From assembly GCA_023379055.1 (NCBI GenBank), contig JAMCSX010000009.1, forward strand, positions 10,625-74,624: a stretch of DNA of 64,000 bases, read 5' to 3'. This stretch comes from Candidatus Marsarchaeota archaeon. GTDB taxonomy: Archaea > Micrarchaeota > Micrarchaeia > Micrarchaeales > CABMGC01. This document shows positions 13,082 to 61,459 of the stretch, piece by piece. The position numbers and the translations under genes are program-made. The notes below the pieces were generated by a model. That model saw nothing but the letters and a program-made list of their open reading frames with translations, was not told where the DNA came from and searched no databases. How positions within the stretch are numbered: the first letter of the stretch is position 1; each line of letters begins with the position of its first letter.

Positions 13082-13094
13082 ATGGACTCGGCGG
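13082..13094 (+). repeat. 13-nt direct repeat ATGGACTCGGCGG (tRNA-Ala 3' end; candidate att core)
   Basis: Identical to 4276-4288. Confidence 0.4.
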
Positions 13095-13186
13095 GAGTCG
13101 CACCCGCGGCCTCATCGTCTTTCGATAAAGCCTTTTTTTTAAAAGCTTCTTGCGAACGATGCGCGCTACTACTGCGCTACGAGCCC
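13083..13186 (-). tRNA. tRNA-Ala (anticodon CGC) with 32-nt intron at 37/38
   Basis: GGGCTCG/CGAGTCC acceptor with G3-U70. Anticodon arm CATCG-TTCGCA[intron 13150-13119]A-CGATG. T arm GCGGG-TGCGACT-CCCGC. Discriminator A. Confidence 0.85.
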
Positions 13187-27719: not shown

Positions 27720-28940
27720 TCACACATCAAGTATCTCTATTGGCTTTTTATAGTATGCCAGGAACAGCCTCTCTATCTCCTTTTTTTCGGAGTCCTTGAG
27801 GCCGATTGAAGCCCTGCCCTTTTCTTCGGCCAAGGACAGGTCCTGCCGAAGTTTTTCCGAATTTAACCTAGATTTATGCATATCCGATATGGTCGCTTCA
27901 AGAGTGCCAATTCCACTTTCAATTAACGATCTCTCCTGCCTTGCTGACTCAAGCTCCTTTACCATCGAATAGATATCCGAGTCAAGTGCGACAGACACGG
28001 ACCCTAGCAGCTCTTCGCCGTTCTTCACTTCAATAATTCCCTTTTCCACTGACTCCTTAAGTTCCTGCAGCATCGACCTGAACTCCTTGTAGTCTGATTC
28101 TGAGGAAATGCTCTTTATGGGATCCGATATAAACTCGCCGAGATGCCTCTTTCTTACTGAGCTATGATCCAATTTTCTTGACGCCCTCCCAAGCGGCATT
28201 GTAAGCAGGCTTATCCTGTCTGACAAATCAGAAATCTTCCTGTTTGTCTCGGATAGCTTCAATTTGTGCATCTCAAGGTCTTTATGAACACCTGTATTCT
28301 GCGTATCGGCTGCGCTCTTGCTGTTCAGCATGCCCTCAAGTGACCTGGCACTGTCCTCAAATCCCTTTATCTCTGCCAGATGCAGCGCAAACCTGGATAT
28401 GGCCTCTTTCAGCGACACATACTCTGCCGCTTCCTTTTCATGCGCATTAAGCTCGCGCCTTAGTCTCTCTCTGAGTACATCGATGTTTGAGAAAATGGAC
28501 TTGAAGGGCCTCATGTATTTGGAGTAACAGTAAAGTACAGTCTTGTAGGTGGCATTTGACTTCAGTATCTTGTTTATTGAATTGTCTACGCTGAGCAGTA
28601 CTGCGCTGTATCTGTAGTATATGTTCAGAGCCATATCCATATCAAGCACTGCCTCTGACATCATCTGCCTTATCGCTGTCGCATATGATCCTTTTTTTGC
28701 TTTTATCGAATCGATGTTAGGCATCCAGAGGTCCTCAACGTACGGCTCGGCATCAAGCTTGGCCAGATCGTCGCATAGCCTGTAAAAATCCAGCTGGGCC
28801 CTTGCAAGATCCTTTACCAGAGGTTCGGCCCTGACCTGCAGGTTGCCCAGCCTACCCTCGAACTGCGACTCAAGCAGTGACAATAACGAGCCTGGTTCTA
28901 CTTTGTCTGGTTCTTTCTTACTGAAAAACGTGGTAGTCAC
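27720..28940 (-). CDS. Long coiled-coil protein, unknown function (GTG start)
   Basis: 406 aa, heptad-like charged/Leu-rich sequence throughout. No enzymatic motif. Confidence 0.5.
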   Translation of the reverse strand: MTTTFFSKKEPDKVEPGSLLSLLESQFEGRLGNLQVRAEPLVKDLARAQLDFYRLCDDLAKLDAEPYVEDLWMPNIDSIKAKKGSYATAIRQMMSEAVLDMDMALNIYYRYSAVLLSVDNSINKILKSNATYKTVLYCYSKYMRPFKSIFSNIDVLRERLRRELNAHEKEAAEYVSLKEAISRFALHLAEIKGFEDSARSLEGMLNSKSAADTQNTGVHKDLEMHKLKLSETNRKISDLSDRISLLTMPLGRASRKLDHSSVRKRHLGEFISDPIKSISSESDYKEFRSMLQELKESVEKGIIEVKNGEELLGSVSVALDSDIYSMVKELESARQERSLIESGIGTLEATISDMHKSRLNSEKLRQDLSLAEEKGRASIGLKDSEKKEIERLFLAYYKKPIEILDV

Positions 28941-28990
28941 CGATATCTAATCAGAACGCCAAGGTTGGGATTTCCAAAACTTTTGATTAA
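28936..28990 (+). repeat. Degenerate copy (E) of the hairpin + GGxTTCCAA..TTTTGATT element
   Basis: gtcaccgatatctaatcagaacgCCAAggTTGGgatttccaaaacttttgattaa aligns with copy D (tcaactgaaggttgagggcttccaagagtgtttttgattgg). Confidence 0.4.
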
Positions 28991-37301: not shown

Positions 37302-37358
37302 GTGACATCCTCCAACGACTGAAGGCAGTTGGCTTCCGATGGTGTCTTTTTGATTGAT
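37302..37358 (+). repeat. Copy A of the conserved hairpin + GGCTTCC..TTTTTGATTG element
   Basis: gtgacatcctCCAACgactgaaggcaGTTGGcttccgatggtgtctttttgattgat. Confidence 0.85.
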
Positions 37359-37493
37359 AAAGGTCCAGCCAGACTGCCTGATGAGAATAAAGCAGCATTT
37401 GGGCGACCACTATTGAAGGGCTATATCCTGCTTACGCGGCCTTTTCTCTTCGCTGTACATAACGTATTTATTCGTTGACCTTGATAAATACTC

Positions 37494-38674: not shown

Positions 38675-39021
38675 ATGAATCTGGTGTTCATCTACGGGCC
38701 TCCTTGGCGTAGGCAAGCTGACCGTTGCTAACGAACTCTCGAAGCTGACAGGATATCCCAGTATTCCATAATCACATAGCTATAGACAGGGTAAGGAAAA
38801 TATATGGCTGTGACTTCCCCCATCCGTAAACGGCGTGGGCTTCCAATGGTGTCTTTTTGATTGGTCATCGTGAAACGCCAAGTGTAGTTCCTGATTCAAC
38901 GATCCTGCTTGCAGCCTCCTTTTCAACATCAGTAAGCCCCAAGCATGCAGCTATAGAGGTAGTGGAGTCGCTGAAGCTCAATAAGTGGGATGGGACTCCT
39001 TCGCGCCTGCAGAGAGGTTAA
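38675..39021 (+). pseudogene. Decayed P-loop kinase gene, frameshifted and interrupted by repeat copy B
   Basis: MNLVFIYGPP then +1 slip: without one T (38704/5) it reads GPPGVGKLTVANELSKLTGYP. A second shift gives VFHNHIAIDRVRKIYG. After the repeat a frame reads ..ILLAASFSTSVSPKHAAIEVVESLKL..*. Confidence 0.45.
38810..38868 (+). repeat. Copy B of the conserved hairpin + GGCTTCC..TTTTTGATTG element
   Basis: gtgacttcccccatccgtaaacggcgtgggcttccaatggtgtctttttgattggtcat. Shares a 40-nt identical core with copy C. Confidence 0.9.
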
Positions 39022-46832: not shown

Positions 46833-47900
46833 ATGACAGATCAGCTATCCCCAGATGACGAGGAGCTTTTAAGGTTTATTGAATCGGCAAAACCCAAGAT
46901 ATACGTAGTCGGCGCCGGAGGCAGCGGATCCAATACCGCGACAAGGATGTCGGAGCTCAACATCGACGGGGCAACAATAGTGGCGATGAATACAGACGCA
47001 CCACATCTTGCAAGGACAAAATCGCACAGAAAGGTGTTGATAGGCAAGAAAATAACGCGCGGGCTTGGGGCGGGAAGCGACCCGAAGGTAGGGGAGGAGT
47101 CGGCATTGGAGAGCAAGGATGACATACGGCACATGCTTGGGGATTCGCAGCTTGTATTTGTGACATGCGGATTAGGCGGAGGCACAGGCACAGGAGCAGC
47201 ACACATAATAGCACACGAGGCAAAGGAGCTCGGCGCACTCACCATAGGCGTAGTCACCCTGCCATTCTCGAGTGAAGGGAAGATAAGGATGAGAAATGCA
47301 CTTGAGGGGCTTTCAAAGCTCAAAAGGGCCACTGACACCACAATAATAATACCGAACGACAAGCTTCTGTCAGTTGCACCAGACCTTCCGCTGAACATGG
47401 CATTCAAGATAAGCGATGAAATACTTGCAAACGCGACAAAGGGCATAATAGAGATGGTTACAAAGCCAGGGATGGTGAACCTCGACTTTGCAGACCTCAG
47501 GAGTGTACTGAAGGATTCGGGATACGCAGTCATAGGCATGGGGGAGGCAAATGCCACCCAGACTACTGACAGGGCAACAATCGCAATAGAGAACACGCTG
47601 AAGAGCCCACTGCTTGACGTGGATATATCCACCGCAAAGAAGGCATTAGTAAATATAGTTGGCGGGGATGACTTGACGCTGAGGGAGGCGGAGGGAATAT
47701 TCCAGAGCGTCTCAGGCAGGATAAGCGGCGAAGCGCTTCTCAAGTGGGGGGCAAGGATAGAACAGAAGATGCAAAAAAGCTCGCTTAAGGTAATGGTGGT
47801 GCTGGGCGGAGTGGAGTTTCCTGATTATACGGAGGATGGCATAAAACAGAAGGTAGCGGATACGGAGAACATAGACCTTGACAGGATATTCGGGGAATGA
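46833..47900 (+). CDS. ftsZ: Cell division GTPase FtsZ
   Basis: GAGGSGSNT and GLGGGTGTGAA tubulin signature. Confidence 0.9.
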   Translation: MTDQLSPDDEELLRFIESAKPKIYVVGAGGSGSNTATRMSELNIDGATIVAMNTDAPHLARTKSHRKVLIGKKITRGLGAGSDPKVGEESALESKDDIRHMLGDSQLVFVTCGLGGGTGTGAAHIIAHEAKELGALTIGVVTLPFSSEGKIRMRNALEGLSKLKRATDTTIIIPNDKLLSVAPDLPLNMAFKISDEILANATKGIIEMVTKPGMVNLDFADLRSVLKDSGYAVIGMGEANATQTTDRATIAIENTLKSPLLDVDISTAKKALVNIVGGDDLTLREAEGIFQSVSGRISGEALLKWGARIEQKMQKSSLKVMVVLGGVEFPDYTEDGIKQKVADTENIDLDRIFGE

Positions 47901-47901
47901 A

Positions 47902-48096
47902 ATGAACTTAAATCCGCTGCCAAAATTGAAGAGCTTCTACAGCGATTCAAAGCATGTGACCAGTGTAAGCTACAGGCCAGATCTGGAGTCCTTCAAGAGG
48001 ACACTCAAGATAGTGCTGATAGGCATAATAATCTTAGGAATACTTGGATTCGCCATATCCTTCATAATAAACAACCTCATACTCCCTACTTCTTGA
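47902..48096 (+). CDS. secE: Protein translocase subunit SecE/Sec61-gamma
   Basis: 64 aa, single C-terminal TM helix. Lies immediately after ftsZ, as in many archaea. Confidence 0.6.
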   Translation: MNLNPLPKLKSFYSDSKHVTSVSYRPDLESFKRTLKIVLIGIIILGILGFAISFIINNLILPTS

Positions 48097-48893
48097 CGAA
48101 TAAGGATGTAAAGATGAGAATAGAGATAGACTTCACAAGGTCTGCACAGGAAAATGCAGATGCATATTTCAAGCTCTCGAAAAAGATGAAGAAGAAGGCT
48201 GAGGGGGCGGCAGTGGCGATAAAGGACCTAGAGCTCAAGCGGTCACGCATCCTGAAGGAAGGGGCAGAAGCCCAGCAGGTTCCTGCGATAAAGAAAATAG
48301 AGGAAAAGAAGTGGTTTGAGAAGTTCAACTGGTTCGTTGCGAGCGACGGCAGAATGGCAATAGGCGGAAGGAGCGCAATGCAGAACGAGCAGATAAACTC
48401 AAAGCACTTCGAGCCGAATGACCTATTCTTCCATGCAGACGTGTTCGGTGCGTCGGTCGTGGTGCTTAAAGACGGCATGGATGCAAGCCGCGTGGTCAGG
48501 GAGGAGGTTGCGCAGTTCGCGGCATGCTTCTCCAAGGCATGGGAGAACGCAATGGGGTCCGTGAATGTATATGCACTTAAGAGGGAGCAGGTATCCAAGT
48601 CAAAGGAGAAGGGTTCATTGGGCACGGGAAGCTTCCTTCTGGAGGGCGAGAGGGAATGGTTCAAGGGCGTGGCACTGGAGCTTGGCGCGTACAAGACCGA
48701 GGAAGCGCAAAGGCCATCAATAGAGCCAATCTCCACGTGCTTGGCAAAGGGGGTAAGGAGGTTCATCCTGCTTAAGCCTGGGAACACGAAGAAGTCCGAC
48801 GCAGCAAAGGCAATAGCAAAGAAGTTATCATTCAGAGACATAGATTACATAATGCAACATCTGCCGCCAGGATCATTCTCGTTGAAGGAGTAA
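48093..48893 (+). CDS. NFACT-R/DUF814 domain protein (Rqc2/NEMF C-terminal-half homolog)
   Basis: WFEKFNWFVASDGRMAIGGRSAMQNEQINSKHFEPNDLFFHADVFGASVVVLKDG. Confidence 0.65.
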   Translation: MTNKDVKMRIEIDFTRSAQENADAYFKLSKKMKKKAEGAAVAIKDLELKRSRILKEGAEAQQVPAIKKIEEKKWFEKFNWFVASDGRMAIGGRSAMQNEQINSKHFEPNDLFFHADVFGASVVVLKDGMDASRVVREEVAQFAACFSKAWENAMGSVNVYALKREQVSKSKEKGSLGTGSFLLEGEREWFKGVALELGAYKTEEAQRPSIEPISTCLAKGVRRFILLKPGNTKKSDAAKAIAKKLSFRDIDYIMQHLPPGSFSLKE

Positions 48894-48901
48894 GTCTGCA
48901 T

Positions 48902-48960
48902 GTGCTGATGGCATCCCACCACCCATAGATGGTGGGAATTTCCTGCTAACTTTGTTAATC
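48902..48960 (+). repeat. Degenerate copy (F) of the hairpin-plus-box element
   Basis: gtgctgatggcatCCCACCAcccatagaTGGTGGGaatttcctgctaactttgttaatc has the same layout as copies B and C but has diverged. Confidence 0.35.
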
Positions 48961-49031
48961 TTCAGCTGTCCACTGCGCGTTAGACTTCCGAGATTTAGCG
49001 CTGCAAGAGAAAACGGGTAAAAAACCTGGAA

Positions 49032-49568
49032 TTACTTCTTCTCTTTCTTTGCCCTGTCCAGCGCCTTGTTAACAAAGTCCTGCGCCTTTGTCGCATTGTC
49101 CCATCCTTCTACCTTTGCCCATTTGCCCGGCTCTATGCTCTTGTAATAGGAGAAGAAGTGCCCTATGAGCGCCTTTGTGTGTTCTCCCAACCCACCGATA
49201 TCGTTTATTGTTCCATTGTCCGGATCTATCTTTTCTACAGGCACAGCCATTACCTTTGTGTCTATCCCTTCCTCGTCTTTCATCAACAGCACGCCTATCG
49301 GCTTGGACATGACTGTGATGCCAGGCGCGAAAGACTCGCTGCTTATGACCATTATGTCAAGGGGGTCTCCGTCCTCGCCCAATGTGCCAGGTATGAACCC
49401 GTAATTATACGGATAGACCATTGACGTGTGAAGTATCCTGTCAACCTTTATGAATCCTGTCTTCTCGTCGTACTCGTACTTTATGTGACTCCCCTTCGGT
49501 ATCTCAATGAATGCGCGCACCGTTTTTGGTACGTCTTGCCCTGCGTCCAGTTTCAGCATGTTTATCAC
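49032..49568 (-). CDS. ppa: Inorganic pyrophosphatase (family I)
   Basis: EIPKGSHIKYEYD, YPYNYGFIPGTLGEDGDPLDIMV. Confidence 0.9.
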   Translation of the reverse strand: MINMLKLDAGQDVPKTVRAFIEIPKGSHIKYEYDEKTGFIKVDRILHTSMVYPYNYGFIPGTLGEDGDPLDIMVISSESFAPGITVMSKPIGVLLMKDEEGIDTKVMAVPVEKIDPDNGTINDIGGLGEHTKALIGHFFSYYKSIEPGKWAKVEGWDNATKAQDFVNKALDRAKKEKK

Positions 49569-49646
49569 TATCTGATAATGTCCCGAAATATTTAAATAGC
49601 TAATGAGAAGGCTCTGGTTTAAATTCCTTGATGCCTAAAATGAAGC

Positions 49647-51284
49647 ATGTCGACCAAGTATGTAGTTGTCTTAGGCTCCCTCATGAGCGGGCTAGGCAAG
49701 GGAGTGGTTACGTCCTCCATACTAAAGCTCCTGGATTTTCATGGATACAAGGTGCTGCCAGTGAAATTCGATGGATATCTGAACTACGATGCAGGTACGA
49801 TGAATCCGTTCCAGCACGGTGAAGTGTTCGTACTGGATGATAAGAGCGAGGTAGATATGGACTTTGGCATATACGAACGCTTCCTGAACAAGAATCTTAC
49901 CGGGGACCTCTCAATAACCGGCGGAAAGCTCTTCAGCGCAATAACCTCCAAAGAGAGGCAGGGAAGTTATCTTGGGGAGGACATACAGATAATACCACAT
50001 CTTACTGATGATATAATAAGAAGGATAGAGGCGATTGCAAGGTCAAGAAAGCCAGATGTGCTTGTCATAGAGGTGGGCGGGACTGTGGGCGATATAGAGA
50101 ACAGCTACTTCATAGAGGCAATGAGACAGCTCGCGCTTAGGCACGATGTTGCATTCGTCAATCTTACATACATACCAAACCTTGCTGCCGTAAGCGAGCA
50201 GAAGACAAAGCCTGCCCAGATAGGCCTTAGGCTTCTTCTTCAGGCAGGCATAAGGCCGGACTTCCTGATATGCAGGACAAGCACCAAGCTGCTTGAAGCG
50301 ACAAAGGAGAAGCTCGCACTGTTCTCTAACCTGAAGACAGATAATATAATGGATGACCCTGACCTGACCACGCTGTATCAGCTGCCCCTCAGGCTGAAGG
50401 AGCAGGGGCTTGACAGGCTCCTGATAAAGAAGCTGGATCTGCCCAAGAAGAAGGAAGACATGCGCAAGGTATCAGAATGGAGGAATAGAGTAGGAAGGAT
50501 AATAAACCCTACCGGCGGGCTGAACGTTGCAGTAGTGGGCAAATACACCTCCATGAGGGACTCGTATGCAAGCGTAAAGGAGGCCCTCATACATGCGGGT
50601 TCCGCAGAGAATACGCAGATAAACATAAGGTGGGTAGAGTCCTCTGATTACGAATCAAAGAGTCCTGACTACAGCAAGGTCGATGATATAGACGCGATGG
50701 TCGTGACTGGCGGATTCGGCAAACGTGGAATTGAAGGAATGATAAACTTGATAAGGTATGCCAGAGAGCGCCGCATGCCGTATCTTGGCCTGTGCCTTGG
50801 GATGCAGCTCATGGCTGTGGAATATGCAAGGAATATATGCGGAATGGAGGACGCAAATTCGTCAGAATTCAACGGCAATTCAAAATACAAGGTGATAGAC
50901 CTCCTTCCCTGGCAGAAAAGGGTGCGCAACAAGGGTGGCACCATGAGGCTCGGGGCACAGGAATGCAGGATAGTCGAAAGGAAGTCGTACACATTCGACG
51001 CGTATAAGAAAAATATGATAAGCGAGAGGCACAGGCACAGATACGAGTTCAACAACAAGTACCTGAAGGCGCTAAAATCCAAAGGGCTCAGGTTCACGGG
51101 TTTCACAAGGGACAGGAAGCTTGTAGAGTTCATAGAGTGGCCGCAGGGATTCGGAATAGGCACGCAGTCCCATCCGGAACTAAGGTCAAGGCTTGAGTCG
51201 CCAGCACCAACATTCGTGGAGCTGGTCAGGGCTGCGAAGAAGAGACACAGCGGATTAATGCAAGTAGAAAATAAGCTTAAGTAA
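49647..51284 (+). CDS. pyrG: CTP synthase
   Basis: SLMSGLGKGV, EVGGTVGDIE, GLCLGMQ glutaminase Cys, RHRHRYEFN. Confidence 0.95.
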   Translation: MSTKYVVVLGSLMSGLGKGVVTSSILKLLDFHGYKVLPVKFDGYLNYDAGTMNPFQHGEVFVLDDKSEVDMDFGIYERFLNKNLTGDLSITGGKLFSAITSKERQGSYLGEDIQIIPHLTDDIIRRIEAIARSRKPDVLVIEVGGTVGDIENSYFIEAMRQLALRHDVAFVNLTYIPNLAAVSEQKTKPAQIGLRLLLQAGIRPDFLICRTSTKLLEATKEKLALFSNLKTDNIMDDPDLTTLYQLPLRLKEQGLDRLLIKKLDLPKKKEDMRKVSEWRNRVGRIINPTGGLNVAVVGKYTSMRDSYASVKEALIHAGSAENTQINIRWVESSDYESKSPDYSKVDDIDAMVVTGGFGKRGIEGMINLIRYARERRMPYLGLCLGMQLMAVEYARNICGMEDANSSEFNGNSKYKVIDLLPWQKRVRNKGGTMRLGAQECRIVERKSYTFDAYKKNMISERHRHRYEFNNKYLKALKSKGLRFTGFTRDRKLVEFIEWPQGFGIGTQSHPELRSRLESPAPTFVELVRAAKKRHSGLMQVENKLK

Positions 51285-51981
51285 AGAAGGATTCAAAGAG
51301 AAGTATGCCCTGCCTGAATCCTGCCTTCGATGTGCCATGGCTCCTGAGCCCAAATTGGTACGGGACCTCGCAGATGTTTATGCTGTTGTGGCGCACGGAC
51401 TTCAGGAAGTCGAAGAGCACCTTGTACCCGCCGCCCACGAACCTGTTCCTGTTTCCGTTGTACACCCTTGCGAAAAGCCTCCGGTCTATGCCGAAGAATC
51501 CGGAGAATATATCTCTGGGCCTCTCTCCGCCCTTTACGGCAAGCGCAGCATATCCCACCAGTATCAGTGTCTTCGATATAATTTTCCTGTGCAATGCCCA
51601 ACCCTTCACGCTTGCACGCGTAGCTACGACCAGGTCCCTGCCCCTGACAAGCTCCAGTGCCATCTCTTTTATTGTGCCAGTGGGGTGCTGCATATCAGCA
51701 TCCATCACTATGGCAAATCTTGTCGTTGATTTTATTATTCCATCTGCAACGCTTGCCGTAAGTCCCTTCTCAACCCCACTTTTCGACCTGTCAAGAAATC
51801 TTACGTTGCCGTTTCCTCCCGATGCTGCGGATACTATCGACTTCGTCATGTCAGTAGACCCATCATCAACAACAATTATGCGTATGCCAGGATATGACTT
51901 CGCAAGCCTTCTTATCAGCGTGCCAACTGTTTTCGCCTCGTTCAATGTAGGCAACACAACAGTGAAGTTCCCGTAATTCAT
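51277..51981 (-). CDS. GT2 glycosyltransferase (dolichyl-phosphate hexosyltransferase-like)
   Basis: TVVLPTLNEAKT..IRIIVVDDGSTD..DADMQH. Confidence 0.8.
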   Translation of the reverse strand: MNYGNFTVVLPTLNEAKTVGTLIRRLAKSYPGIRIIVVDDGSTDMTKSIVSAASGGNGNVRFLDRSKSGVEKGLTASVADGIIKSTTRFAIVMDADMQHPTGTIKEMALELVRGRDLVVATRASVKGWALHRKIISKTLILVGYAALAVKGGERPRDIFSGFFGIDRRLFARVYNGNRNRFVGGGYKVLFDFLKSVRHNSINICEVPYQFGLRSHGTSKAGFRQGILLFESFFT

Positions 51982-51990
51982 GATGACAGA

Positions 51991-53604
51991 TTATACCCTG
52001 ACACTTATAAATAACCTATGCAGGTATTGTGCATATCCAAGGAACGGACCGAGTACCACGTTTATCCTCCCCAATCCCGATGCCGCATGCCTCATGCTTA
52101 TTAGGTCACCTTCGTTGACAGCTCCGAACAGGACAAGTATGGGAGGATATATCGCTACCGCCTCAAGGAGACCCAGGACTATGTAGATTATGTAGTCCAG
52201 TGTTGCAAATCCAATATTCAGAAATGTCATACTCAATCCCAACAGCACTGCCATTATTATGGCAAATACTATGTTGCTAGAGTAGAGCCGGGCAAGTTTC
52301 TTGAACTCGAATCGTATGCTATACAGCTTCTTGGCGTACCTTTCGAACAGCACTGCCTCAATAATGTTGCCGACGAAGAATATGATGATTATGGCTCCGA
52401 CGATCTTCTCTGAAGGCACAAAGGCCAGCATGAGGGCGAGCTGGAAGAATGCGGATATGAAGTTTATCTTCATGACGCTCTTTGTATAGCCTCCAGATAT
52501 CAGAAGGTTGCTTAGGTATAGCCCAAATAATCCTATGGCAGTGCCCAGGGCTATAAGCGTAAGGTAAAGCGGCGCGCTGGTGAAATTCTGGCCAACTAGC
52601 AGGTTTAATCCAGGTCCTGCCATTACTCCAATAAAGAGTACGAACGGAAGCATTGGGAGCAGCGCAAAGTGTATTATCATGTTGTATATCCTGTTCAGCT
52701 CCTGCTCCGACGCCATCGACTTGGCAGTGCTGAATACTGGGAGCAGGCCGCTTCCAAAGGCGCTGTGTATCATCGCAAGAAGCGCCAGCCCTTTCAATGC
52801 GACGCCGTAATTTCCAAGCGCTGCGGTGGTCACGTAAAGCCCGAGAAAGAGCACCGAGAAGTTCTGCATGCCGGTATTCAGCAGGTTTGTGGTAGCTATC
52901 GGCCATACGAAGGAGAATATGCCCCTGAGCTCGGCTTTTGTTGGTATTATTATTCTGAACTTGCAATACTTTGACATGGCTATATATATGAGATAGACGC
53001 CGAACAGCGCACCGAATATGTAGCCTATCAGCATTGCCGAGACTGCACCTATGACGCCGAACTTTAGGGTCAGCACTATGCTGAGCAGAAGCTGGATAAT
53101 GTCCACGGTTACAGTGAGTATTGACGCAAGGCCTGACCTTGAGAACCCTATTAGAGCCCCAAATGCTGCGCCATTCATCATGCTGGATAATATGGTTCCG
53201 GATACCACTATGAGTATAATCTGGCTTATGCCGACATGCCCGAAAGCACCAGCGACGTATCCGCTTATTGACATGCCAAGCAATGTGAGGATAATGCCCA
53301 CGGTCCCAGCTATTGCATAGCCCCCGAAAAGCGACCTGAGTATCCCTTCGCCGTCATTCTTGTACGCGAGCCTTGACAGCATGCTGCTGAAGTACGCACC
53401 GATCCCAAATGCAAGGAATCCGTTGACAAGTGCAGAAAATCCAAATGCAAAGGTGTAGATGCCGTAGCTCGACGGCCCAAGAATTCTTGCGACTATTATG
53501 AAAGTGAGTGCAGTAAGAACCACGCTAAAGCCCTGACCAACAAATAACGGATAGAGTAGCCTGGCAGCTCTCATGCCTATCCTATCTTCGCTAGATCCTT
53601 CCAT
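51991..53604 (-). CDS. MOP-superfamily polysaccharide flippase (Wzx-like)
   Basis: About 14 TM helices. The track start at 53643 reads through repeat copy C, so the ATG at 53604 (or 53574) is preferred. Confidence 0.7.
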   Translation of the reverse strand: MEGSSEDRIGMRAARLLYPLFVGQGFSVVLTALTFIIVARILGPSSYGIYTFAFGFSALVNGFLAFGIGAYFSSMLSRLAYKNDGEGILRSLFGGYAIAGTVGIILTLLGMSISGYVAGAFGHVGISQIILIVVSGTILSSMMNGAAFGALIGFSRSGLASILTVTVDIIQLLLSIVLTLKFGVIGAVSAMLIGYIFGALFGVYLIYIAMSKYCKFRIIIPTKAELRGIFSFVWPIATTNLLNTGMQNFSVLFLGLYVTTAALGNYGVALKGLALLAMIHSAFGSGLLPVFSTAKSMASEQELNRIYNMIIHFALLPMLPFVLFIGVMAGPGLNLLVGQNFTSAPLYLTLIALGTAIGLFGLYLSNLLISGGYTKSVMKINFISAFFQLALMLAFVPSEKIVGAIIIIFFVGNIIEAVLFERYAKKLYSIRFEFKKLARLYSSNIVFAIIMAVLLGLSMTFLNIGFATLDYIIYIVLGLLEAVAIYPPILVLFGAVNEGDLISMRHAASGLGRINVVLGPFLGYAQYLHRLFISVRV

Positions 53605-53628
53605 CGTCCAACCTAGAACCTTATCCTT

Positions 53629-53687
53629 GTGACTTCCTCCCACCCGTAAACGGCGTGGGCTTCCAATGGTGTCTTTTTGATTGATAA
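53629..53687 (+). repeat. Copy C of the conserved hairpin + GGCTTCC..TTTTTGATTG element
   Basis: gtgacttcctcccacccgtaaacggcgtgggcttccaatggtgtctttttgattgataa. Confidence 0.9.
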
Positions 53688-53719
53688 AGATTAATAATTG
53701 TGGTATATTCCTCGGGCTA

Positions 53720-54406
53720 TCAAAGCTCTTTTCTAAGCTTCATTATCGCACCGAAGAAATACAGGAAGTCCGTCCTTCCGACCTTTGTGCTGTCTCCCTC
53801 CCTCCACACCACAGGCATTTCATACGGCACTATGCCTCTCCTCTGAGCCCTGACCAGTATCTCCGAATCAAAGAACCACCGATTGTCATGCACTTCCTTT
53901 ACCGCCTTTCTTATGTACCTGCCATCCCAGAACTTGAATCCGCACTGATGGTCGCTTATTCTTGAACCTAGGAATATCCGCATCATAAGATTGAAGAGCA
54001 TGCTCTCCGCAAGCCTTGACCTGCTCCTCTCCGTAGACGCGCCCTTCGCGTATCTGGAGCCCAGCACTATCGGGTTTCCCTCTTCAACCTTCTTCACAGC
54101 CATCTCCACGTATCTCAGGGGCACTGCGAGGTCTATATCCATATAGCCTATGACATCGCCTTTTGCAACAGATATCGCATTGCAGATCGCACCCCCCTTC
54201 CCTATCCTTCTTCTTCTTGAGATAAGCCTAACGTTCCTTAATCTGGCAAAGTTCATCGCTATCTTTTTGCTGCAATCATAGGACCCATCTTCTGCTATTA
54301 TTATCTCCGCGTCCCTATGTCTGACCACCTTATTGTATATAGGCATGAAGTTTCTTTTCAACTCTTCACATCCGTTATAAACAGGGAGTATAAGGCTGAG
54401 TCTCAT
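53720..54406 (-). CDS. GT2 glycosyltransferase
   Basis: LSLILPVYNGCEEL..EIIIAEDGSYD..MDIDL. Confidence 0.8.
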   Translation of the reverse strand: MRLSLILPVYNGCEELKRNFMPIYNKVVRHRDAEIIIAEDGSYDCSKKIAMNFARLRNVRLISRRRRIGKGGAICNAISVAKGDVIGYMDIDLAVPLRYVEMAVKKVEEGNPIVLGSRYAKGASTERSRSRLAESMLFNLMMRIFLGSRISDHQCGFKFWDGRYIRKAVKEVHDNRWFFDSEILVRAQRRGIVPYEMPVVWREGDSTKVGRTDFLYFFGAIMKLRKEL

Positions 54407-54487
54407 GGTACCACAGATTACCTCATAGATTATATACGTGGGTTTTTATAATAGAGAGTTCAATAAAAATTCTGTTTCAGTCTTCAG

Positions 54488-56824
54488 GTGTTTTCAGTGG
54501 AATTGGAGGGCCAAGGCCAGATATCGTCGAATTCAGATCAGCATTCCAGCCATTCCCACGTGCAGGAGGATCCCCGTTCGCATGTAATGCACCGCGTCCA
54601 CAGCGTGTTTGGAGGAAGAGGGGACCAACCAATATACAAGAATACTTATGTAAAGGTATTTGCAGCATACCTGATAATAGCACTTGTAATGTACTGGACA
54701 GTTACGCTTAACATTACAACACGGGTAGTAAACGGATTTGGCGATGTACACCAGAGCCTCTTCAATCTCTGGTGGGTGCCGTATTCCATGTTCGTTCTGC
54801 ACCAATCCCCGTATTTTACATCGCTTTTATACTATCCCATAGGCGCGAACCTCGCAACGCAGACGCTAAGCCCCATAGCAGCAATACTGATAACCCCGAT
54901 ATACGACCTTAGCCCCGCACTAGGATACAATGTGCTCTTCTTTGCAGGATTCGCACTGTCCGGGCTGTTCATGTTCCTGCTTGCAAAGTACCTCACAAAA
55001 AACAATTATGCATCATTCATAGCCGGACTCATATTCGCATTTAGTCCGGCGCACATAGCGCAGGCTATCGCGCATCTTGATTGGACAATGGTAGAGTTCA
55101 TACCGGCATTTATACTACTGTACCTGCTTGCGCTTAGGGAGAAGAATCTCAAGTATGCTGCGCTTGCCGCCCTGAGCTTTGTGCTTCTGACATTCATGGG
55201 GGACATAGAGCAGGGACTGATGACCTTCTTTGCCGCAATAATACTTACCATACTTCTTGTCATAACCGAGAGAAAGGAGATGCTTAAGATTAGCACACTC
55301 AAGTCGCTTGCAGTCATTATTGTATTGGTGTTGCTTTTCGCTTCTCCGATAATCGCAATGCTTCTCCCTTACGTCAACTCAGGCGCATTTGCTGCTGCAC
55401 AGCAGAACTCTTTTGTGACCAGCAATATGGAATGGAGTGACAACCTCCTGTCATTCTTCCTACCAAGCCATTATAACGGAATATTCCAGGGACTTGCAAG
55501 CTCATATTCTTATATCTATCAGCTTACCTATAAGGGCATACAATACAACATAAACGTCGGAGAGAGGGTATCCTACCTGGGATATTCCGTACTGTTCCTT
55601 GCAGCAGTAGGAGTATATTTTGACTACAAGAACAACAGATTAAGAAATCTTGCCATATGGCTTGCAATCTTCATAATATTCGCCTGGCTTGCAATAGGAC
55701 CGTATCTGCAGATAGGCAATACAGTGACAGGCATTCCTGGGATATACGTGCTATATCGGTCAGTGCCGCTACTGAATATAATCCGCGAACCAGGAAGGAT
55801 GGACTTCATAGCCACGATCGCACTTGCAATCATGGCCGCATTCGGATTTGCACATCTGATACAGAAGAAGGACAGGAAGACGGCATACAAATATCTTGCG
55901 GTGTTCACACTTATCATATTAATAGAATATAATGGCATGCCCCTTACCAATCCGTATATAAGCAATTCGACCACGTCTGCAGCGGTGCCAAAGGCGTACA
56001 ACGAGATAGGCGCGATTCCAGGCAACTTTTCGGTGCTCATACTTCCTGCATTATCCAATCCGTCATCCACGCCAAACCAATTCACTGGCACTGCAACGTA
56101 TTATGCATCCATCCTCAAGAAGCCCATAATAGGCGGATATACCAGCAGGGAGAACGCCACCCAGTCACTTGCAGTAACATCAGTACCCCTTACGTTATCC
56201 GCATTGTACCTAGAAAGCGGATACGGTCTCGTGTATCCATCGCCCATTCTTGAGAACTACAGCAATGTTACTCTTCTCTGGCTTGCAAACTATAACACCA
56301 GGTTCATATCGGTAATTAGGCCAGCATACAACACTACTGAGCAGGAGCAGCTTCTATCGTATCTTGCCAGCGTATTCGGGCAGCCAGCATATATGAGCAA
56401 TACAACTGCGGTATTCTCGACACAGCAGGCGCTTTCGGCAAACGCAGGCAGATCACTGGTGTCATATACTATAGGGAACTGGACCCCAGGATACGATTTC
56501 TGCAGCCCTTATGCACCATGCAACAGCACACTTTCTGAATTGTGGTTTGGCAATAATCCAAGGGGCATAATGTTATACTCGCCTGCAGACCAGAACATAG
56601 TAATGTCGATGTCCACATTCAGCTTCTCAAGCAACACACCGCTTTCGGTGTATCTGAACAATAATCCTGCGGCCGTGCTGTCACTTGGGCCTAACAGCAC
56701 CACCTACTCAATAAACATGACTGTACCAAGCGGATTTAGCCAGATTCTTTTGTACTCGAAGCAGGCCGCGCAGACCCAGTATCTCGACTTCGGCGTAAAG
56801 AACATAACATTCACAAGAAAGTGA
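54488..56824 (+). CDS. Large polytopic membrane protein with C-terminal extracellular domain; putative GT-C-type glycosyltransferase
   Basis: About 13 TM helices followed by a sequon-rich soluble domain, in a glycan gene cluster. No WWDYG motif seen. The start is uncertain (GTG 54488 or ATG 54587). Confidence 0.45.
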   Translation: MFSVELEGQGQISSNSDQHSSHSHVQEDPRSHVMHRVHSVFGGRGDQPIYKNTYVKVFAAYLIIALVMYWTVTLNITTRVVNGFGDVHQSLFNLWWVPYSMFVLHQSPYFTSLLYYPIGANLATQTLSPIAAILITPIYDLSPALGYNVLFFAGFALSGLFMFLLAKYLTKNNYASFIAGLIFAFSPAHIAQAIAHLDWTMVEFIPAFILLYLLALREKNLKYAALAALSFVLLTFMGDIEQGLMTFFAAIILTILLVITERKEMLKISTLKSLAVIIVLVLLFASPIIAMLLPYVNSGAFAAAQQNSFVTSNMEWSDNLLSFFLPSHYNGIFQGLASSYSYIYQLTYKGIQYNINVGERVSYLGYSVLFLAAVGVYFDYKNNRLRNLAIWLAIFIIFAWLAIGPYLQIGNTVTGIPGIYVLYRSVPLLNIIREPGRMDFIATIALAIMAAFGFAHLIQKKDRKTAYKYLAVFTLIILIEYNGMPLTNPYISNSTTSAAVPKAYNEIGAIPGNFSVLILPALSNPSSTPNQFTGTATYYASILKKPIIGGYTSRENATQSLAVTSVPLTLSALYLESGYGLVYPSPILENYSNVTLLWLANYNTRFISVIRPAYNTTEQEQLLSYLASVFGQPAYMSNTTAVFSTQQALSANAGRSLVSYTIGNWTPGYDFCSPYAPCNSTLSELWFGNNPRGIMLYSPADQNIVMSMSTFSFSSNTPLSVYLNNNPAAVLSLGPNSTTYSINMTVPSGFSQILLYSKQAAQTQYLDFGVKNITFTRK

Positions 56825-56878
56825 CACCTTTCATCAACTGAAGGTTGAGGGCTTCCAAGAGTGTTTTTGATTGGTCAT
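56821..56878 (+). repeat. Copy D of the conserved hairpin + GGCTTCC..TTTTTGATTG element
   Basis: gtgacacctttcaTCAACtgaagGTTGAgggcttccaagagtgtttttgattggtcat. Its GTGAC overlaps the upstream stop codon. Confidence 0.85.
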
Positions 56879-57103
56879 CATAAAAAACATGCGTATTTAG
56901 TTAAATTTCCAACTACTGCAATAAGAGAATCTTGGTGAAAAATAGCCTCCGGCGACAAAGTCCGACGAGCTAGGCAAATAAAAAAACAGGTTCTGTCAAA
57001 AAAAGCACCAACTGCAAAAAATGCTTGCAGAGAAGATTTAAATACATATTACGGTGCAGATATAATTGCGACCAATTTATGACGATTGGGATGGGATGAA
57101 AAA

Positions 57104-57340
57104 ATGGGTATAGATGAATTAGAGGTAGGTGCAACCTACGATCTTAGAATTGCGGCTAAAGATCCGCGCGGAGAAGGAATAGGCAGAATAAACGATGTTG
57201 TAGTCTTTGTGAAGAACACAAAATCAAGGCTGGGTAAGACTTACAGAGTAAGAATAACGAATATGCACAAGACCTTTGCATATGCAGAGCCGATAGATAA
57301 TAGCAAGCCTTTTATAGGTAATGGTAGTTTAATATTGTGA
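57104..57340 (+). CDS. TRAM-domain RNA-binding protein
   Basis: YDLRIAAKDPRGEGIGRINDVVVFVKNTKSRLGKTYRVRITNMHKTFAYAEPI. Confidence 0.7.
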   Translation: MGIDELEVGATYDLRIAAKDPRGEGIGRINDVVVFVKNTKSRLGKTYRVRITNMHKTFAYAEPIDNSKPFIGNGSLIL

Positions 57341-57396
57341 AACAATCGATATCAGTGCAGTAATTTTTCGATTTGGTTTTTCTTCTAATCGGTGTA

Positions 57397-58035
57397 ATGA
57401 TGGTTGATAGAGAGTTCTACGAAGCTGTAAAGAAAGGTACAACTACGGTCGGGCTTATATGCAGCGACGGGGTAGTCATGGGATCTGACTCGAGGGCTAC
57501 AATGGATACCTTCATAGCTAGTTCCGAAGCTGTGAAAATACACAGAATAAACGAAGTGCTTGGCATGACAATAGCAGGCGGCGTAGGGGATGCCGAATAC
57601 TTGGTAAAGCTGCTGAAGATGCAGGACGAGACATATACTATGGAGGAAGGAAAGCCCTTGAATCCGACATCTGCAACATCACTTCTGTCGCTGATACTTC
57701 AGGAAAACAAGGGATTTCCCTTCCTTGTGCAGCTTCTTATAGGCGGATTGAAAAAGGGAAATCCAGAGATATTCAACATAGATCCCCTGGGCGGATACAC
57801 AAAGGAATCGAAGTTCACAGCCACAGGAAGCGGCTCACTTACTGCACTTGGATACATAGAAGGTATATATGACGACGGCCTTACGACACAGGAATCGCTG
57901 AAGCACGTTGCAAAGGCGCTAAAAATAGCGATGAAGAGGGATTCTGCAACAGGGGACAGCACAAGGATAGTTTCGATAACAAAGAAAGGGTATAGGGAGT
58001 TGTCAAGGGATGAGATAGATAAGCTCCTTAAATAA
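57397..58035 (+). CDS. psmB: Proteasome subunit beta
   Basis: Propeptide then G/TTTVGLICSDGVVMGSDSRAT catalytic Thr. Confidence 0.9.
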   Translation: MMVDREFYEAVKKGTTTVGLICSDGVVMGSDSRATMDTFIASSEAVKIHRINEVLGMTIAGGVGDAEYLVKLLKMQDETYTMEEGKPLNPTSATSLLSLILQENKGFPFLVQLLIGGLKKGNPEIFNIDPLGGYTKESKFTATGSGSLTALGYIEGIYDDGLTTQESLKHVAKALKIAMKRDSATGDSTRIVSITKKGYRELSRDEIDKLLK

Positions 58036-58097
58036 GTCGCTTAGATTAGGTTCTGGAAATTGGTTCGGTTGATTCACATTGCGTATTTTGTGATGTA

Positions 58098-60038
58098 GTG
58101 AGTGAAGAAGAGTATAACAAAGATATACTGGATAAGGTAAAAGCACTAATACCTAGTGATGCCGGGTCTGTCGAGGTTGAGTTCGAAGGTCCTGACGTTG
58201 CGGTATACGTTGAGAACATACCAGCATTGTATAAGAACGATGATGTGATACGCGGCATATCCGCTTCGGTAAAGAAGAGGCTCATAATAAGAAGCATGCC
58301 CAACAAGCTTATGGATCCAGCGCAAGCTGTAGAGAAGATAAGATCGCTGGTGCCTGCAGATGCAGGTGTGCAGCCTGAAGGCATAAAGTTTGTGCCAGAA
58401 TTTTCTGAGGTATATATAGAGGCATTAAAGCCCGGGCTTGTGATAGGGAAGGGGGGCTCAACACTGATGCAGATAATAATGGAGACTAGCTGGGTACCGA
58501 GAGTCCTTAGGCAGCCGACCATGAATAGCGATGTCATAAAAGGCGTCAGGCAGTTAATGTTCAAGGAAAGCCAATTCAGGAAGAAATTTCTGGGAGGGTT
58601 AGGCAAGAAGATAAATCACATGGGCACGAAGAGCGAGTGGGTAAAGGCAACAGCACTTGGTGGATTCAAGGAGGTTGGGCGGAGCAGTCTGCTCATAGAG
58701 ACAAACAGGTCAAAGATATTGATAGACTGCGGGATAATGCCTGAGCCAGGCATAAGGGGATCTGATGCAAACCAGAGCGGAGAGAACAAGGCATATCCCT
58801 ATCTTGACAGCATGAATGTGACGATAAACGATCTGGACGCCGTGATACTTACGCATGCACACATGGATCATATGGGATTCATACCCTACCTGTACAAATT
58901 CGGATACACCGGCCCAGTATACTGCACGCCTCCGTCAAGGGATCTCGCAGCGCTTCTGCTTTATGATTACATAAGGCTTGTGGCAAAGAGCGGAGGGACT
59001 CCGCTGTACGGCGAGAAGGACGTAAAGAATATGCTTATGCATACGGTTACCAGGGATTACGGCGAGGTGACTAACGTGACTGACGAGATAAAGCTAACAT
59101 ACCATAATGCAGGGCATATACTCGGAAGCGGCACAGTGCACCTGCACATAGGTGAGGGAATGTACAACATTGTGAGCACAGGAGACATGAAATATGGATT
59201 CACAAGGCTACTGAATGAGGCGGATACCAGGTATCCGCGGGTAGATGCCCTTTTCATAGAATCAACGTACGGCGGCCCCAGCGACATAACGACAAATAGA
59301 AAACAGGCGGAGCTTGACCTCATGAACGCAATAAGCAGCACAGTAAAGAATGGTGGAAAAGTACTGATACCGCTGTTTGCCGTAGGCAGAAGCCAGGAAC
59401 TGATGCTTGTCCTTGAAAACTATATGATGAGCAACCCAATGTACAAACTTGAGTGTCCAGTGTACCTTGACGGAATGATACTTGAGGCGAGCGCAATTCA
59501 TACTGCATACCCAGAGTATCTTAAGATAGGGCTGCAGCAGAGGATACTCGGCAATAATTCACCGTTCGAGAGCGAGATCTTCGAAGTTGCAAAGGGCGAA
59601 CGGGGAGACATACTCGACAAGGGACCTTCAATAATACTTGCAAGTGGAGGCATGCTCAACGGAGGCGCAAGCCTTGAATATTTCAAGGTAATGGCTGAGG
59701 ATCCAAAAAACATGTTAATATTTGTAGGATACAACAGCGTAAGCTCTCTTGGGAGGAGAATACAGAACAAGGCCAGCGAGATAGCGCTTCCTGGAGAGGA
59801 TGGGAAGCTTAGCCAGATAAGGATAAATTCCCAGATACGAACCATAGAGGGATTCTCCGGCCACAGCGACAGGCGACAGTTGATAGATTTTGTAAGAAGC
59901 CTGAGACCGTCTCCGAGGAAGATATTTACTATGCATGGCGAAGAGTCTAAATGCGAGGACCTATCCAGGACACTGGGCAACATAATGCATGCAGAGTCAA
60001 GGTCCCCAATGGATCTTGACACAATAAGATTCAAGTAG
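58098..60038 (+). CDS. aCPSF1/FttA: KH-domain beta-CASP metallo-beta-lactamase ribonuclease
   Basis: N-terminal KH repeats (GLVIGKGGSTL), HAHMDHMG, 646 aa. GTG start. Confidence 0.9.
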   Translation: MSEEEYNKDILDKVKALIPSDAGSVEVEFEGPDVAVYVENIPALYKNDDVIRGISASVKKRLIIRSMPNKLMDPAQAVEKIRSLVPADAGVQPEGIKFVPEFSEVYIEALKPGLVIGKGGSTLMQIIMETSWVPRVLRQPTMNSDVIKGVRQLMFKESQFRKKFLGGLGKKINHMGTKSEWVKATALGGFKEVGRSSLLIETNRSKILIDCGIMPEPGIRGSDANQSGENKAYPYLDSMNVTINDLDAVILTHAHMDHMGFIPYLYKFGYTGPVYCTPPSRDLAALLLYDYIRLVAKSGGTPLYGEKDVKNMLMHTVTRDYGEVTNVTDEIKLTYHNAGHILGSGTVHLHIGEGMYNIVSTGDMKYGFTRLLNEADTRYPRVDALFIESTYGGPSDITTNRKQAELDLMNAISSTVKNGGKVLIPLFAVGRSQELMLVLENYMMSNPMYKLECPVYLDGMILEASAIHTAYPEYLKIGLQQRILGNNSPFESEIFEVAKGERGDILDKGPSIILASGGMLNGGASLEYFKVMAEDPKNMLIFVGYNSVSSLGRRIQNKASEIALPGEDGKLSQIRINSQIRTIEGFSGHSDRRQLIDFVRSLRPSPRKIFTMHGEESKCEDLSRTLGNIMHAESRSPMDLDTIRFK

Positions 60039-60753: not shown

Positions 60754-60807
60754 ATATCAGACGCAGATACCAGCATTATAAAACCTTTTTACGCTATTAT
60801 ATGCGCT

Positions 60808-60879
60808 GCTCTGGTCGTCTAGTGGTTAGGATGGAAGCCTGTCACGTTTCCGACCCGGGTCCGAATCCCGGCCAGGGCG
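60808..60879 (+). tRNA. tRNA-Asp (anticodon GTC)
   Basis: GCTCTGG/CCAGGGC acceptor, anticodon arm GAAGC-CTGTCAC-GTTTC, T arm CCGGG-TCCGAAT-CCCGG, discriminator G. Confidence 0.85.
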
Positions 60880-60994
60880 TTTTATGTTTAGAGCTTGAAT
60901 GATAATGATTGCTAATATTCGAAGGTGTTGCATTAAAACCTAATGCCATAAGACCCTTCTGGAAAACCATTCTGGATTTGGTGGATAACTCGTA

Positions 60995-61294
60995 ATGCAA
61001 CTGACGCAAAAAATAAGGATTTTTCCGAATAAGGGACAGAAAACACTACCATGGATACTTTCGAAAAAGTGCAGACTCATCTACAACTTTGCTTTATCGG
61101 AAAGACGGGAAGCGTATTCAAACGGAACTAAAGGCATAACCTATTACAAACAGCAGAAGGACCTTCCGAAAATAAAGGAAAAGTATCCAGAATATATTTG
61201 GGTATATTCACATACATTGCAATATACTCTCCGAATACTCAATGCAAAATACTCCCTAACGAGGTTGGGGAAACCCTTAGGTATTAACTTTTGA
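60995..61294 (+). pseudogene. IS200/IS605-family TnpB (OrfB) N-terminal remnant
   Basis: MQLTQKIRIFPNKGQKTLPWILSKKCRLIYNFALSERREAY..YYKQQKDLPKIKEKYPEY..VYSHTLQYTLRILN matches the usual TnpB N-terminus. Only 99 aa remain, against the much longer length I recall as typical for TnpB. Confidence 0.65.
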
Positions 61295-61349: not shown

Positions 61350-61459
61350 TCCCGTTGGGGAGATTCGAACTCCCAACCTGCCGGTATCTACTCCTTCAGC
61401 ACTTTGCTGGGAAGCAATCGAACTACAGCCGGCCGCTCTAGCCATTGAGCTACAACGGG
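61350..61459 (-). tRNA. tRNA-Tyr (anticodon GTA) with 37-nt intron at 37/38
   Basis: CCCGTTG/CAACGGG acceptor (archaeal C1-G72). Anticodon arm GCCGG-CTGTAG[intron 61422-61386]A-CCGGC. T arm GGGAG-TTCGAAT-CTCCC. Confidence 0.85.

Follow-up and report, generated by a model that had tools for sequence, protein, structure and literature searches.

Repeated intergenic hairpins in a Micrarchaeota contig as probable orphaned right ends of tnpB-carrying IS200/IS605 insertion sequences

Insertion sequences (IS) of the IS200/IS605 family, for which IS608 (H. pylori) and ISDra2 (D. radiodurans) serve as references, carry a subterminal imperfect-palindrome hairpin at both ends, and the family includes the IS1341 group, whose members hold tnpB only. 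In IS608, CL (TTAC) lies 19 nt 5' of IPL and CR (TCAA) lies 10 nt 3' of IPR, while the guide tetranucleotides are located 5' of each hairpin foot (PMC3201880). The reRNA or omega-RNA associated with TnpB is derived from the terminal 3' part of tnpB together with the transposon's right end (RE) and approximately 16 nt of flanking sequence acting as the guide (PMC8612924). In archaea, the sotRNAs of IS1341-type elements end in an RE hairpin, in many cases with a UUCA loop, that is also found in intergenic RNAs (PMC4615843).

The DNA analyzed in the current study, hereafter the window, is a stretch of 64,000 nt from a contig of a Candidatus Marsarchaeota archaeon placed by GTDB within the Micrarchaeota (JAMCSX010000009.1), in which a short intergenic element is repeated. 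We consider this ~55-nt element to be very probably the RE of an IS1341-type IS200/IS605 insertion sequence, with the four copies of the window (A to D) being orphaned and 5'-truncated versions of it. Since no copy in the window is attached to a tnpB gene, this assignment, which is the best explanation of the data, rests on homology to elements in other genomes; the link to tnpB is visible only in these relatives, although copy B keeps the last 19 tnpB codons.

At family level, the element matches an IS200/IS605 right end and the 3' module of a TnpB omega-RNA, and the defining features that can be tested from sequence were found. As in IS608 and ISDra2, a subterminal imperfect-palindrome hairpin is present at both ends of the parent element. 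The RE stops about 10 nt 3' of the hairpin foot, with TCAC in place of the TCAA of IS608, and the target or TAM on the 5' side of the left end (LE) hairpin is TTTAT at 16-19 nt, compared with TTAC at 19 nt in IS608 and TTGAT in ISDra2. The likeness to the IS1341 group extends to the position of tnpB immediately upstream of the RE and to the occurrence of non-autonomous copies, presumably moved by a Y1 TnpA in trans. The family differs from IS608 and ISDra2 in belonging to a Micrarchaeota (DPANN) lineage and in having its own LE and RE sequences, whereas the copies in the window differ from IS1341 elements in being 55-115-nt 3' stubs without LE or tnpB rather than elements.

Identity and anatomy of the parent element

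Searching one genome per species with the motif of the element returned 12 loci, five of them in three Candidatus Micrarchaeota MAGs; the other seven, from six bacteria and one Nitrososphaeraceae archaeon, were discarded as coincidences within coding sequences. Four of the five Micrarchaeota loci lie within 100-170 nt of a contig end, as expected if a multi-copy repeat breaks assemblies. The Micrarchaeota loci continue, on the strand opposite to the one read in the initial annotation, into an open reading frame (ORF) that ends in ...HTGDRDINASKNIFERAISQ...AESGTILGAS followed by the stop codon, and in the four loci near contig ends this ORF end (...HTGDRDINASKNIF...ILGAS and stop) corresponds to a TnpB C-terminus. 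In protein searches, the TnpB C-terminal fragment retrieved a PF07282 protein, and a reconstructed pseudo-protein retrieved 147 TnpB homologues of approximately 400 aa, many of them labelled Micrarchaeota. The retrieved TnpBs (409 aa and similar) carry PF12323, PF01385 and PF07282, all above the cut-off. A metagenome scan yielded one true copy, the remaining hits being false positives in bacterial coding sequences, and a viral scan yielded no copies. An Rfam search, one of the checks proposed in the initial annotation, gave no family matches either: only tRNAs were found in the window at gathering thresholds, and two of the tnpB-RE loci searched at E<=10 gave one chance sR17 match elsewhere and no family match, HgcC included.

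In Micrarchaeota genomes and metagenome contigs, 13 distinct sites (L004/L008 and L005/L010, each pair counted as one site, L017, L020, L021, L023, L033, L034 and L036 to L040) have the element directly behind the stop codon of tnpB; they comprise nine intact tnpB genes of ~400 aa and four fragments. At all 13 sites the tnpB stop is followed by CCAATCAAAAA..CACCATTGGAAGCCCAC-loop-GTGGGAGGATGTCAC, which corresponds to the element of the window when its minus strand is read. On that strand the element itself reads CAATCAAAAAGACACCATTGGAAG, a hairpin CCCAC..loop..GTGGG and AGGATGTCAC, and its anatomy in the relatives is the tnpB stop (TGA), CCAATCAAAAAGACACCATTGGAAG, the same hairpin and the terminal AGGATGTCAC, after which unrelated flank begins. 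Similarity ends exactly after GTCAC in 17 of 17 distinct copies, all of which finish with ...G(G/A)(T/A)GTCAC, 10 nt past the hairpin foot, and their flanks are unrelated. The plus strand, which the initial annotation took as the informative one, is thus the reverse of the element: its GTGAC corresponds to the transposon terminus ...GTCAC in reverse complement, and its T-run, likewise, to the A-run between the tnpB stop codon and the hairpin. The initial annotation recognized no named element and missed the link with tnpB, and it named clear similarity with the terminal repeats of some known IS as evidence against its proposal; the element proves to be of a named kind, and such similarity exists at family level.

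The full element measures ~1.37 kb and consists of a left end with TTCATAGCGGGAAAA-CCCAC..GTGGG-ATGRAAGCG, or in a second class with CAATCGTGGCGTAAAA-CCCAC.., then tnpB and the 55-nt RE. It is IS1341-like, since no tnpA is found inside it. The LE hairpin is nearly identical to that of the RE, and in nine full-length copies (L020, L023, L033, L034, L036, L037, L038, L039 and L040) it is preceded at 16-19 nt by TTTAT, or by ATTAT in L033 and L037. At the RE, 10 nt with TCAC as their last bases lie 3' of the hairpin foot, and the four bases GAAG stand just 5' of it; by analogy, GAAG occupies the position of the IS608 guide sequence; the LE-type guide tetranucleotide would be AAAA. A Y1_Tnp gene (PF01797, 93.7 bits) is located 1.5 kb from the RE in one metagenome contig (L021), and no gene for Y1 TnpA or a TnpA-like protein was detected in the window by tblastn.

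The biochemistry of TnpA and TnpB in these elements can be proposed by analogy with IS608 and ISDra2. As single-stranded DNA, the RE hairpin would be the subterminal palindrome bound by the Y1 transposase TnpA, whose cut would fall behind the terminal TCAC, 10 nt from the hairpin foot on its 3' side. As RNA, the omega/reRNA (the archaeal sotRNA) would direct the TnpB nuclease by means of a 3' extension reaching into the flank. At 9474-9509 on its minus strand, L034 also contains another RE that has diverged (GGGGAAGCCAACGACTTTTAGTCGTTGGGGGTGTCAC); it lies behind a 104-aa TnpB fragment (gene 9490-9804), some 200 nt away from an intact element to which it is divergently oriented, which indicates that different subfamilies share the design of GAAGCC, hairpin and ...GTCAC.

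The hairpin and an omega-RNA-like structure

The initial annotation had suggested selection on structure from the hairpins of the window, and the wider set of sequences bears this out. Among 15 copies, five of the eight hairpin pairs showed compensatory changes, 83% of the cells were paired and the covariation score was reached by none of 500 shuffles. The outer stem occurs, for instance, as CCCAC/GTGGG or CCAAC/GTTGG, and the inner stem as CCG/CGG, GCC/GGC, GAU/AUC or GAC/GUC. Several copies, A and D among them, have a CUUCAG loop, and this frequent (C)UUCA(G) loop of the terminal hairpin, seen in A, D, L033, L036 and L038, recalls the RE-like tetraloop of sotRNAs.

A larger structure was predicted on an alignment of the last ~240 nt of nine elements and copy B, and on this same alignment 37 pairs were counted, with 94.8% of the cells paired and 12 pairs having compensatory changes; none of 500 shuffles reached any of five measures, and slid controls were 38-47% paired. 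This structure has stems lying within the tnpB reading frame, such as CCGAA-GGACA-TTCGG in some elements versus CCCCT-GGACA-AGGGG in others. The RE hairpin is predicted to be the last stem-loop of a roughly 170-230-nt omega-RNA-like structure that overlaps the 3' end of tnpB. Within the full RNA, the ACACCA of the element is predicted to pair with an upstream TGGTGY in the 3' end of tnpB. A long-range pairing of GACACC with GGATGTC inside the 55-nt unit was rejected, being almost invariant and hence uninformative, and ACACCA is predicted to pair with TGGTGY instead. The likeness to the omega-RNA, reRNA or sotRNA of TnpB thus consists of a structured RNA over the last ~120-170 nt of tnpB plus the RE, with several covarying stems, and of a modelled scaffold that ends at the transposon boundary, so that the flank would be the guide.

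Besides, a 13-nt complementarity was found between the probable true start region of tnpB, (A/G)TGGTCATC(G/T)TGAA, encoding M-V-I-V/L-K, and the stop region, TTCA(C/A)GATGACCA, which lies inside the omega-RNA scaffold. Among eight full-length elements (L020, L023, L033, L034, L036, L038, L039 and L040), 97% of the cells were paired and two positions were compensatory, one of them occurring as G-C, U-A and A-U. The 3' half of this complementarity is also present in copy B of the window (38862-38875). It could represent pairing of the mRNA with the omega-RNA, by which the start codon would be masked, or else a stem in single-stranded DNA joining LE and RE. A literature search returned no title or abstract describing such a complementarity.

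Copies in the window and their genomic context

The four copies A (37302-37358), B (38810-38868), C (53629-53687) and D (56821-56878) were read directly from the sequence as they had been quoted in the initial annotation, and the 40-nt core reported there as identical between B and C was confirmed. The 26-mer GGCTTCCNANNGTGTCTTTTTGATTG occurs three times in the window without mismatch in a regular-expression search, and copy D has a diverged variant of it that is one base shorter. A covariance model, which the initial annotation had proposed as a check, was derived from 15 copies and applied without filters to the entire window; it detected A to D only, with 62-78 bits and E-values of 1e-13 to 1e-17, and placed all four in a single orientation. 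The two weaker relatives that had raised the earlier count to six, E (28936-28990) and F (48902-48960), went undetected by this model even at E<=10 and are therefore not counted as members, so the window holds four copies; their membership of another RE subfamily likewise found no support from the model. The F site does show a 7-bp hairpin (CCCACCA/TGGTGGG) between convergent NFACT-like and pyrophosphatase genes, which may be unrelated or may be the RE of a distant IS subfamily.

All the copies were delimited on the minus strand. Copy A is a solo RE fragment (37302..37356) that corresponds to the last 55 nt of the IS (IS positions 1307-1360 by blastn, 75.4 bits); it reads CAATC, the hairpin CCAAC/GTTGG and the terminal GGATGTCAC, with a hairpin of the type found at the RE of L036 and L038, and its 5' break abuts the TAM-like pentanucleotide TTTAT (37357..37361), read from the sequence. 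Copy C (53629..53683, 77.7 bits) is also a solo RE fragment made of the last 55 nt; its hairpin, CCCACGCCG/CGGGTGGG, is of the L034/L006 type, and TTTAT (53684..53688) again abuts the 5' break. Copy B (38810..38925, 64.9 bits) retains the last ~115 nt of the IS, comprising the RE (38810-38863), the TGA stop codon (38865-38867) and about 60 nt of tnpB 3' coding remnant, which is identical to L038 at 58 of 60 positions and in which residues 412-430 of protein P0012 match 38924-38868 with 89% identity by tblastn. Copy D (56821..56879, 62 bits) is a solo RE fragment that has diverged by 20%, starts at GATGACCAATC, matches IS positions 1301-1363 by blastn, retains the tnpB stop codon and adjoins TTTAT (56880..56884), likewise read from the sequence. 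The 3' tail of copies B and C is mutated, with GGAAGTCAC in place of GGATGTCAC.

When three complete IS copies were compared with the window by blastn, only the RE was matched, over the last 55-95 nt (IS positions ~1268/1301/1307-1363), and no LE was found. In a tblastn search with eight TnpBs and a TnpA, none of the copies proved to have a tnpB body nearby; the matches were limited to the 19 final codons next to copy B and to an unrelated N-terminal remnant at 60995-61294. The retained 3' end amounts to 55 nt in A and C, 59 nt in D and ~115 nt in B, and no copy in the window reaches the at least 170 nt of a complete omega-RNA scaffold. Copy B represents roughly the 3' two-thirds of the scaffold, while A, C and D consist of the last stem-loop only, lack every upstream omega-RNA stem, including the TGGTGY partner of ACACCA, and thus cannot form the scaffold. 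Moreover, the copies should not be mobilizable, since they have no left end. Most likely, the copies in the window are immobile relics incapable of serving as guide RNAs, and are probably inert.

These properties also define how the copies relate to other short elements. PATEs and MITEs of the IS200/IS605 family are likewise short, non-coding, repeated derivatives located in intergenic DNA, but PATEs keep LE and RE and remain mobilizable, and no LE was found by blastn in the window copies. The REP/RAYT systems are similar in having a single hairpin unit of ~35-55 nt with a short conserved motif beside the hairpin and in being related to IS200/IS605 ends; they differ in that the window has four copies and no TnpA-like gene, and in that these copies derive by truncation from an IS with tnpB and do not form a family of their own. 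The copies in the window are thus neither complete omega-RNAs nor PATEs or MITEs. The three candidates put forward in the initial annotation, a REP/MITE-like element, a small structured RNA or a protein-binding module, each captured part of the picture, as the family is repeated, structured and transposon-like, its hairpin would by analogy be bound by TnpA, and it is predicted to form the 3' stem-loop of an omega/reRNA; the comparison failed for the PATE/MITE part.

Regarding the neighbouring genes, copies A and C are located 62 and 24 nt, respectively, upstream of minus-strand ATGs, that of C belonging to a flippase gene (ATG at 53604); copy B lies between convergent genes; and copy D falls on the stop codon of a plus-strand gene, a 778-aa oligosaccharyltransferase (OST)-like ORF (54488-56824) whose TGA is supplied by the terminal GTCAC of the copy (GTGAC on the plus strand, 56821-56824). 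Such mixed contexts are what scattered transposon insertions give, and we agree with the initial annotation that neither a plain terminator nor a plain promoter accounts for the copies. The uniform orientation of the four copies is not significant (two-sided p = 0.125) and, by analogy, would be compatible with the lagging-strand bias known for the IS200/IS605 family (PMC8612924). Most likely, the shared orientation, the mixed gene contexts and the plus-strand T-run are all by-products.

Other features were observed in the window. A 99-aa ORF at 60995-61294 on the plus strand is an N-terminal TnpB remnant (PF12323, HTH_OrfB_IS605, 36.7 bits) that is ~32% identical to Micrarchaeota TnpBs, belongs to a different subfamily, is oriented opposite to A to D and adjoins a tRNA-Asp gene (60807-60880), with TTTTAT immediately after the tRNA 3' end. 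Two tRNA genes found by Rfam on the minus strand, of 104 nt (13083-13186) and 110 nt (61350-61459), were missed by ARAGORN in bacterial mode; they are presumably intron-containing, which is consistent with an archaeal origin. The region 46875-60037 is syntenic with L036 (GCA_028866835.1, Ca. Micrarchaeota) at ~70-74% nucleotide identity; in L036, a full tnpB element that is absent from the window lies between the pyrophosphatase and CTP synthase genes, while the glycosyltransferase and OST-like block bracketed by C and D (53720-56824) is present in the window only. A composite transposon bounded by two REs, with the glycosyltransferase and OST genes as its cargo, was rejected on two grounds: D is a simple insertion on the OST stop codon, and no RE is found at the junction in L036.

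Origin of the stubs and alternative explanations

The junction of TTTAT with CAATC is common to A, C and L006, an independent copy from another MAG, and no residual tnpB homology was detected upstream of the junction in these three copies. The hairpin subtypes of A and C differ and match different full-length REs (L036/L038 and L034, respectively), and the combination of one junction with different subtypes seems to indicate that the same break has arisen more than once. An identical junction at three unrelated sites and in two subtypes is unlike random decay, and would allow for a specific process or a mobile mini-unit. In the parent, the break region reads TTCAC, GATGAC and CAATC in succession, within an upstream RE segment that contains internal TCAC and TGAC (...TTCACGATGACCAATC...), the break of A and C falling after TGAC and that of D after TCAC; both breaks resemble the true terminus ...GATGTCAC. 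The left break of copy B follows neither the TAM/TEM-like nor the CAATC pattern.

The origin that we favour would be the loss of LE and tnpB from a full insertion at a TTTAT site, for which two routes may be proposed. In the first one, an aberrant TnpA cut at the internal TEM-like sites, after TCAC or after GATGAC, together with a normal cut after the left TTTAT, would excise LE and tnpB and leave the TAM and the stub behind. In the second one, a deletion would occur between CAATC microhomologies, located at the start of one LE class (L034) and just before the RE. For copy D, joining the flanks restores ...ACA AGA AAA TAA (TRK and stop) of the neighbouring gene, and thus the gene may have ended with the same residues before the insertion, its TAA being inside the TTTAT target. 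Nonetheless, marginal residual homology upstream of the junction of D (67 of 2000 shuffles) makes its TTTAT junction ambiguous and weakens this reading. It is also conceivable, if rather unlikely in our judgement, that the TAM-abutted 55-nt stubs, running from CAATC after TTTAT to the terminal GTCAC, are the product of a defined TnpA side reaction, a single-hairpin REP-like scar that may persist as an expressed RE-tetraloop RNA.

The shared 5' boundary of A, C and L006 at unrelated loci would also be expected if the 55-nt unit itself were mobile, as a REP-like or minimal PATE-like element with a single hairpin serving as both ends and TnpA provided in trans. Each boundary abuts the TAM TTTAT, as a TnpA-type insertion 3' of a TAM would give, one LE class (L034) starts with the same CAATC after TTTAT, and the near identity of LE and RE hairpins is in line with this idea, which we nevertheless consider improbable. 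The TnpA synapse normally requires two hairpins, and the match of A and C with different full-length REs argues for recurrent origin rather than the spread of one mini-element. In addition, ~148 kb of related loci contained just one further solo copy, as opposed to the 13 distinct tnpB-linked sites. In IS608 it is the guide tetranucleotide of the left end that determines the target (PMC3201880), and the unit carries the RE-type GAAG instead of the LE-type AAAA, so that it should not target TTTAT.

The solo copies could otherwise have been kept as functional small RNAs, used in trans as orphan or partial guides by TnpB or a TldR-like protein from another locus, or acting as RE-tetraloop sRNAs similar to the PATE-derived RNA of Halobacterium. 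Omega-RNAs carried by PATEs and working in trans with TnpB have been discussed (PMC10055086), and H. salinarum expresses intergenic RNAs with an RE-like tetraloop, one of which improved growth when overexpressed, and has a 120-bp tnpB pseudogene that keeps a sotRNA (PMC4615843). Read-through or operon transcription is plausible for A and C, which are on the same strand as the genes downstream of them. Even so, the lack of the upstream omega-RNA stems in A, C and D, the mutated 3' tail of B and C, the divergence of D, and a window without tnpB or an Rfam family match make this explanation decidedly improbable.

A host signal on the plus strand can hardly be credited, whether as a terminator-like hairpin with T-run, as a promoter module or as some unrelated structured RNA, for example a C/D-box sRNA. 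On that strand the hairpin does precede TCTTTTTG, and two copies, B and D, come after genes of the same strand. Against this, many genomes carry the sequence as the terminal 3' part of tnpB elements on the other strand, plus-strand folds did not surpass shuffles in stability (z from -1.1 to +1.0), there are no C/D boxes or Rfam match, and neither A nor C lies behind a plus-strand gene. Also rejected were sRNAs of the C/D-box or H/ACA type, half of a split tRNA, an RNA with an Sm site and a terminator of archaeal type, as no boxes or Rfam match were found and single-copy folds did not exceed shuffles.

Taking the copies as truncated right ends, the apparent unknown intergenic RNA or DNA element is resolved as the 3' terminus of a TnpB-bearing IS200/IS605 family resident in Micrarchaeota. 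This is a lineage-specific new element of a well-known kind and nothing categorically new, and the copies in the window are ordinary mobile-element relics. Annotators gain the exact LE, RE, TAM (TTTAT) and TEM (TCAC) of a Micrarchaeota IS family, and the study of TnpB gains a natural series of covarying omega-RNA scaffolds from a DPANN lineage. The recurrent TAM-abutted breakpoint and the start/stop complementarity are the parts that a specialist might pursue, as the solo-RE breakpoint hints at how such elements decay, while the complementarity could bear on the autoregulation of TnpB or on the synapsis of LE and RE.
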